Of a stretch of 48,718 nucleotides of DNA, positions 26,394-26,620 are shown piece after piece. The notes under the pieces were generated by a model that saw only the letters and a program-made list of their open reading frames with translations, had not been told where the DNA came from and made no database searches. Location of the stretch: the IMG/VR virus record IMGVR_UViG_2597489870_000007. The stretch is one strand, 5' to 3'. The translations under genes were made by a program, and so were the position numbers. The first letter of the stretch is position 1, and each line of letters starts with the position of its first letter. Origin of the DNA: a virus. Taxonomy: Duplodnaviria; Heunggongvirae; Uroviricota; Caudoviricetes.

Positions 26394-26620
26394 TGTTCAT
26401 TCCACGGACAAAAACAGAGAAAGGAAACGACAGAGGCCAAAAAGCCCGTTTTCAGCACCTGTCGTTTCCTTTCTTTTCACGGGGTGTTTTAAATAAAAAC
26501 ATTAGGTTACGACGAAGAAGAACGGAAACGCCTTAAACCGGAAAATTGTCATAAATAGCGAAAACCCGCGCGCCTTCCGCCCCGTGAGAGCTCAGGTCAT
26601 CAGAAGGACCCACATTAAAG
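26394..26620 (-). other. cos region (cosB/cosN/cosQ) with a variant cohesive-end sequence
   Basis: Minus strand upstream of Nu1 is collinear with the lambda left end (CGGGTTTTCGCTATTTATG..., TTTCCGGTTTAAGGCGTTTCCGTTCTTCTTCG...). At the predicted cosN (about 26571..26582) it reads GGGCGGAAGGCG instead of lambda GGGCGGCGACCT. Confidence 0.7.

Follow-up and report, generated by a model that had tools for sequence, protein, structure and literature searches.

A lambda-type cos site carrying a common natural cosN allele in a prophage of E. coli ETEC H10407

Substitutions in lambda cosN are tolerated unevenly across its two halves. Mutations of lambda bp 7-12 give a minimal phenotype whereas symmetric changes in the left half are severe, and anchoring of TerL through the contact between TerS and R3 renders bottom-strand nicking insensitive to sequence (PMC4669245). 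Natural sites also vary in the right half, at bp 9 and 12 in N15 and phiD326 and at bp 8, 9, and 11 in Gifsy-1; the flanking CG pairs, the left half, and the highly conserved 7-bp cosQ are retained across these variants, and lambda terminase uses cosN-N15 as well as its own cosN (PMC4669245). The cohesive end of mEp213/LLS, GGGCGGCGCGCT, is a further natural variant (PMC12315714), and the cosN survey of Vahanian 2017, as far as it is summarized in PMC9303873, agrees with free variation of bp 7-12. On the cosB side, R3 has been placed at bp 50-65, and its distance from cosN is crucial for cutting and packaging (PMC9026076). No searchable paper contained the exact 12-mer described here, or its complement, in a phage context; Vahanian et al. 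2017 (Virology 509:140) lay outside the scope of that search. The 12-mer was matched in one Ginkgo and one Streptomyces paper, both unrelated to phage. The cos site reported below is real but ordinary, and is another natural example of the published rule for bp 7-12.

The site lies in an integrated chromosomal prophage with an integrase; the whole stretch of DNA that was analyzed (48,718 nucleotides, hereafter the window) is 100% identical to E. coli ETEC H10407 (NC_017633.1). Late genes and cos are on the minus strand, where the genes for holin, lysozyme, and Rz (28647-27432) are followed by an intergenic region and then by Nu1, gpA, portal, and head and tail genes. The right-end genes upstream of cos are unrelated to those of lambda. 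Within the segment that replaces them, a 112-aa open reading frame (26713-27051, plus strand) runs antisense to the late operon in the Rz-cos interval; RefSeq lists a shorter, 106-aa version as a hypothetical protein (WP_000025002.1), and searches of Pfam, PHROG, and PADLOC gave no match. Just upstream of the lysis cassette is a gene for a DNA methyltransferase (N6_N4_Mtase; 28652-29704, minus strand). At the far end of the prophage, the gene adjoining the integrase (47495-48718) encodes a 1,275-aa SIR2-domain protein (43485-47312, minus strand) that matches the PADLOC Dsr1 model from end to end (2,730 bits), and is by that match a predicted prophage-borne anti-phage defense gene.

The reverse complement of 26380-26720 was aligned with lambda-family phages. 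From cosN into Nu1, 206 nt aligned without gaps to lambda/DE3 (93.7% identity, E = 4e-83), and the same stretch was 96.6% identical in phages YDC107_1 and PhiR46_1. The 12 nt aligned in the DE3 record carry the annotation "cos site" and read GGGCGGCGACCT; at the collinear position on the minus strand (26571-26582, with cos bp 1 at 26582), the window reads GGGCGGAAGGCG, and the plus strand carries its complement, CGCCTTCCGCCC. Placement of the 12-mer is unambiguous because of the gapless alignment and the DE3 annotation. Taken alone, the 12-mer is not significant, since at least one match with no more than one mismatch was obtained in 31 of 100 shuffles. GGGCGGAAGGCG occurs once in the window, and the lambda 12-mer is absent from the window even with one mismatch allowed. 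The first-pass annotation had marked 26560-26595, which encloses the site, as a cos collinear with lambda, flanked by matching cosB/Nu1 sequence but carrying a different predicted cohesive end. The alignment bears out both statements, and the lambda sequence that it had quoted agrees with the DE3 record.

Seven of the 12 bases are identical to lambda. The differences, at bp 7, 8, 9, 10, and 12, convert CGACCT to AAGGCG in the variable patch that forms bp 7-12 of the cohesive end (26571-26576, minus strand). Unchanged are bp 1-6, C11, and the flanking ACG and CGCGGG, giving a site of the form ACG/GGGCGG....../CGCGGG (slashes mark the edges of the 12-mer). The left half GGGCGG and the CG dinucleotides beside both nick positions, the features sought following PMC4669245, are therefore both present. 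As in N15, phiD326, Gifsy-1, and mEp213/LLS, only the right half varies, with the left half, CG pairs, and cosQ retained. Those phages show two or three changes whereas the window has five, resulting in a different 6-mer; the window is not of the N15/phiD326 type (bp 9 and 12 only), and its allele is combined with lambda-type cosB and Nu1 instead of an N15- or Gifsy-type packaging module.

AAGGCG also forms the first 6 nt of the R3 motif (26529-26534; cos bp 49-54). Templated copying of the patch from R3 was considered and rejected: the match stops at the 6-mer, the chance of such a match is roughly 0.05-0.1 by our own estimate, and it is probably a coincidence.

Gapless collinearity with the annotated lambda cos places the predicted N2 nick on the minus strand between 26583 and 26582 and the predicted N1 nick on the plus strand between 26571 and 26570. 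The 7-bp packaging-termination signal cosQ, GGGTCCT (26605-26611, minus strand), is 22 nt upstream of the predicted N2 nick. The same heptamer is found in lambda/DE3 (presumably at lambda 48473-48479), YDC107_1, PhiR46_1, the Stx1 phage, and nearly all IMG/VR left flanks. Between cosQ and cosN, the spacer TCTGATGACCTGAGCTCTCACG (26583-26604, minus strand) is 22 nt long against 23 nt in lambda and has strongly diverged: its last three nucleotides (ACG) alone match, so that homology breaks within 3 nt of the nick, and the spacer marks a mosaic junction with the right end of the phage genome. The nick is 23 nt from cosQ in lambda and, with few exceptions, at lambda-type sites in general (110 of the 113 first sampled). 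The left flank of the window, exact or 1 nt off, was found at eight IMG/VR sites (the tally, of 8 + 1, counts the window itself), and a 49-mer identical to that of the window was found in 36 E. coli genomes. The 22-nt distance from cosQ to N2 recurs in a second, unrelated spacer type (CTCATTTGTGCGGGTCCT-TCCGGTGGGGTGGCCTGCCACG) at loci L007, L046, and others.

On the other side of cosN, the spacer to R3, CGCGGGTTTTCGCTATTTATGACAATTTTCCGGTTT (26535-26570; cos bp 13-48), has the lambda length and is conserved in all cosB types. It is followed, also on the minus strand, by R3, the TerS binding site (26517-26534; cos bp 49-66), which is identical to lambda; by an A+T-rich R3-R2 interval that is nearly identical to lambda (26474-26516); by R2, GAAAGGAAACGACAGG (26458-26473; cos bp 110-125), which is an inverted copy of R1; and by R1, CTGTCGTTTCCTTTCT (26418-26433; cos bp 150-165). 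In lambda, the R3-R2 interval contains the IHF site I1, the role of which has been described (PMC4669245, PMC9026076). All three R sites are identical to those of lambda, occupy columns invariant against lambda/DE3, and stand as far from cosN as in lambda; the order and spacing of cosN, R3, the I1 region, R2, R1, and the Nu1 start, an ATG at cos bp 190, are likewise shared. At the sequence level, the elements reported to be constrained (bp 1-6, the CG pairs at both nicks, C11, cosQ, and R3, R2, and R1 with their spacing) are intact.

These features very probably describe a complete lambda-type cos (cosQ-cosN-cosB) with a common natural cosN allele, which is cut normally and has lost annealing to lambda ends. 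By analogy with lambda, Nu1 dimers would bind R3, R2, and R1, with IHF bending at I1. From the sequence, gpA would thereby be positioned to cut both strands where it does in lambda, with the nicks staggered by 12 bp, and the predicted products are 12-nt 5' overhangs, GGGCGGAAGGCG and CGCCTTCCGCCC. The five substitutions would fall in the cosB-proximal half, where the anchored terminase would need no specific bases. Because they are confined to bp 7-12, cutting, packaging, and self-cyclization are expected to be normal, and annealing to lambda-type ends alone would be lost. The allele conforms exactly to what has been published, namely that the half of cosN nearest cosB can vary freely. Counting against this explanation, five changes in 6 bp exceed the two or three of the quoted natural cases, and cosQ stands 22 nt from the nick, 1 nt closer than in lambda.

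That shorter distance, together with a GCGCGC palindrome that the new sequence creates over the predicted N1 position, could instead be read to mean that the nicks have shifted and that the true cohesive end has another register or overhang length. We consider this very improbable. R3 stands at an unchanged distance from cosN, and cutting and packaging depend critically on that distance (PMC9026076); the CG dinucleotides at both nicks and the left half-site are unchanged; and identical terminase proteins are found with both alleles.

The terminase genes are directly downstream of cosB. Nu1, the small subunit (181 aa; 25848-26393, minus strand), is 98% identical to lambda/DE3 Nu1, with identity throughout the first 47 residues and the N-terminal DNA-binding region. 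The large subunit, gpA (641 aa; 23948-25873, minus strand), contains GpA_ATPase and GpA_nuclease domains, and the gpA proteins of the lambda group are at least 98% identical to it. Comparison of 42 variant-linked with 45 lambda-linked full-length gpA sequences revealed no column that separates the alleles; the greatest frequency difference was 0.36, at residue 9. Both alleles were found with each of four identical gpA proteins and with each of four identical Nu1 proteins. At the Stx1a phage locus, which has a lambda-type cosN, just 6 of 730 nt differ from the window across cosB and Nu1, as against 5 of the 6 nt in the patch. Co-adaptation of the terminase was rejected, as no gpA or Nu1 substitution tracks the allele. 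Since identical proteins accompany both alleles and no gpA column separates them, one terminase evidently serves both.

The consequences for annealing were evaluated by DNA duplex calculation. Matched ends gave -19.0 kcal/mol for lambda and -18.6 kcal/mol for the window allele. In the lambda-by-window cross-duplex, GGGCGG alone pairs (6 bp, -9.5 kcal/mol) and the 6 nt beside the N1 nick stay unpaired, so that the ends could not be ligated on that side. On this calculation, the window ends are predicted to be incompatible with lambda ends, as the first-pass annotation had supposed. The window is outside the lambda compatibility group, whose members (lambda, DE3, the Stx1a phage, and most sampled E. 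coli lambda-like prophages) share GGGCGGCGACCT. Incompatibility would matter only for chimeric chromosomes or the joining of ends between genomes.

Allele frequencies were obtained using a 49-nt probe, in which any 28-nt exact seed must take in variant bases, and an equivalent probe for the lambda type. AAGGCG was found in 157 of 5,426 complete E. coli genomes (168 places, 16 on plasmids), and the lambda type in 4,482 of the same 5,426 (8,404 places, 20 on plasmids). In NC_017633.1, a second place outside the window matches the variant-specific probe, and H10407 may contain a second element with the allele. When IMG/VR was scanned with bp 7-12 left free, 113 CGACCT, 7 AAGGCG, and 1 CGACCG were recorded among the first 120 matches listed. 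An allele-specific IMG/VR scan returned 85 stretches, three of which are chance GC-rich matches, and gave 83 true sites. The presence of the allele in hundreds of independent assemblies led us to reject sequencing error. Among the natural cosN alleles of lambda-like elements in Escherichia, AAGGCG ranks second in frequency. Two further scans detected rare alleles of bp 7-12 (CAGGCG, 4; CAGACG, 3; CTGACG, 1; CGACCG, 1; AGACCT, 2; AAGCGT, 1; AAGGCT, 1), several of them one step from a major allele, and across these sequences the patch appears to behave as a weakly constrained stretch with two dominant states.

The allele is found in several backgrounds. Its right flank falls into three types, of which lambda cosB accounts for 62 sites, the second for 18, and the third for 4; besides IMG/VR, these counts take in the window and three loci from phages or genomes. 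The TerS of the second type is 83% identical overall, with the first 60 or so residues diverged, and represents a different DNA-binding specificity. More than 25 different left flanks are joined to the allele, and the lambda allele is found with the same right-flank classes. Both alleles extend across the same cosB classes, and AAGGCG across many left flanks; the two have therefore been shuffled repeatedly by recombination within the conserved stretches that border them. All records and contigs with the allele are prophage-ordered or permuted, and none begins or ends at cos.

Deposited phage records with the allele are YDC107_1 (CP025712), which is filed under Ravinvirus, and PhiR46_1 (PV340565; listed host ECOR13). 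Judging solely from the host field of its record, PhiR46_1 is probably a propagated phage; a literature search found no publication on PhiR phages. PLSDB has the allele on 23 non-mobilizable plasmids from Escherichia and Shigella, of about 34-92 kb and mostly about 46 kb. The one plasmid examined out of the 23, pEC21Z151-46K, has lambda-like lysis, terminase, and portal genes in a layout that matches PhiR46_1 and YDC107_1. All three share with the window the cosN allele and a lambda-type cosB followed by Nu1 and gpA; they differ from it in having a 23-nt, different cosQ-cosN spacer and other upstream genes, and pEC21Z151-46K was deposited as a plasmid whereas the window is an integrated chromosomal prophage. 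A site-specific DNA methyltransferase gene of pEC21Z151-46K (L222; 173-1249) occupies the same position as the methyltransferase gene of the window. On plasmids, AAGGCG is over-represented about 40-fold, at 16 of 168 places compared with 20 of 8,404 for the lambda allele.

The prophage itself is damaged. ISCro1, an IS66-family element encoding tnpA, tnpB, and a 523-aa transposase (about 15065-17759; open reading frames at 15113-15790, 15790-16137, and 16157-17728, plus strand), interrupts the tail-terminator gene gpU, and the two fragments (14933-15064 and 17760-18035, minus strand) are both pseudogenes of ETEC H10407 in RefSeq. With gpU split, the prophage is probably tail-defective and unable to assemble working tails unaided, its own cos may never come into productive use, and end sequencing of induced phage DNA would be complicated. 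The cos and terminase of the H10407 prophage look intact from their sequences. This damage, and the alteration of five of six adjacent bases, would fit a decayed cosN in a dying prophage, in which the substitutions reduce or abolish nicking and packaging. We regard such decay as extremely unlikely, given that an identical allele is present in 157 E. coli genomes, 83 IMG/VR sites, 23 plasmids, and deposited phage genomes, and that the 42 IMG/VR loci long enough to show it have a full-length gpA reading frame downstream. Decay would not strike the same 6 bp identically while leaving the 730 nt downstream more than 99% conserved, and all positions reported to be functionally important are intact. 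The first-pass annotation had also suggested that an altered cosN might impair packaging. This part did not hold, as the allele is frequent, occurs in many backgrounds with intact terminase genes and in deposited phages, and is changed in bp 7-12 only; the end differs from that of lambda and is predicted to be incompatible with it, but the site is less unusual than had been supposed.

Taxonomic distribution was examined in 185,579 species-representative genomes and IMG/VR. Apart from chance GC-rich matches and lambda DNA in unrelated assemblies, the lambda-like flank was confined to Escherichia and Shigella, and import of the allele from another genus was rejected for this reason. Escherichia sp. 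E1V33 is a species-representative genome with the variant. Over about 110 nt, the cos regions in Raphidiopsis brookii D9 (L211), an Aeromicrobium sp. (L213), and a plasmid of Alicyclobacillus fastidiosus (L216) equal lambda/DE3, and these are probably lambda, cosmid, or spike-in DNA and not resident phages. In Archangium violaceum (L215), cosN and cosB are of lambda type but the left flank differs. At L069 (4115-5100), and similarly at L132, L180, and L189, the variant cosN is followed by a gene for a 183-aa TerS-like protein, with an AlpA-type excisionase/regulator gene just upstream and no 641-aa TerL in the next 4 kb; these loci may be phage satellites that borrow the terminase of a helper.

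A further question is how the allele has been kept. Selection, as opposed to neutral drift, is an unlikely but coherent answer, under which the allele would be maintained as a separate cohesive-end compatibility group. The proposed benefit, which we hold doubtful to the same degree, would be that lambda-like elements resident in one cell or infecting it together, satellites and phage-plasmids among them, are kept from productive end-joining or from chimeric packaging. The distribution of alleles is strongly two-peaked, the dominant ones differing at five of six positions with intermediates rare, and AAGGCG is over-represented on plasmids (16/168 against 20/8,404 places). Cross-annealing is predicted to be poor, and a 2-bp end mismatch is reported to lower the yield of viable phage about 4-fold (PMC4669245). 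Against selection, rare single-step alleles do exist, linkage and recombination of an old neutral polymorphism explain the pattern equally well, and one thriving phage-plasmid lineage could by itself account for the excess on plasmids (of the 23, one was examined). It is accordingly improbable that Escherichia lambda-like elements form two main compatibility groups, CGACCT and AAGGCG, kept by selection. Were that true, a chromosome cut at the cos sites of two elements, or an end joint between co-infecting genomes, would be non-viable. Prophages, phage-plasmids, and satellites with a common terminase type would in this way become isolated, and the plasmid excess of AAGGCG would be part of the same phenomenon.

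The preferred explanation, a normally cut lambda-type cos with a common alternative allele, has practical and biological implications. Pipelines for annotation or for prediction of termini that seek the literal lambda 12-mer will miss about 2% of E. coli lambda-type cos sites. For cosmid and in vitro packaging logic and for end-joining assays, no cross-reaction with AAGGCG ends is expected. The two alleles offer a ready substrate pair for testing how many mismatches between cohesive ends are tolerated in cyclization. In this data set, the strongest natural evidence that bp 7-12 go unread by terminase is the occurrence of identical terminases with both alleles, which differ at five of the six bases.
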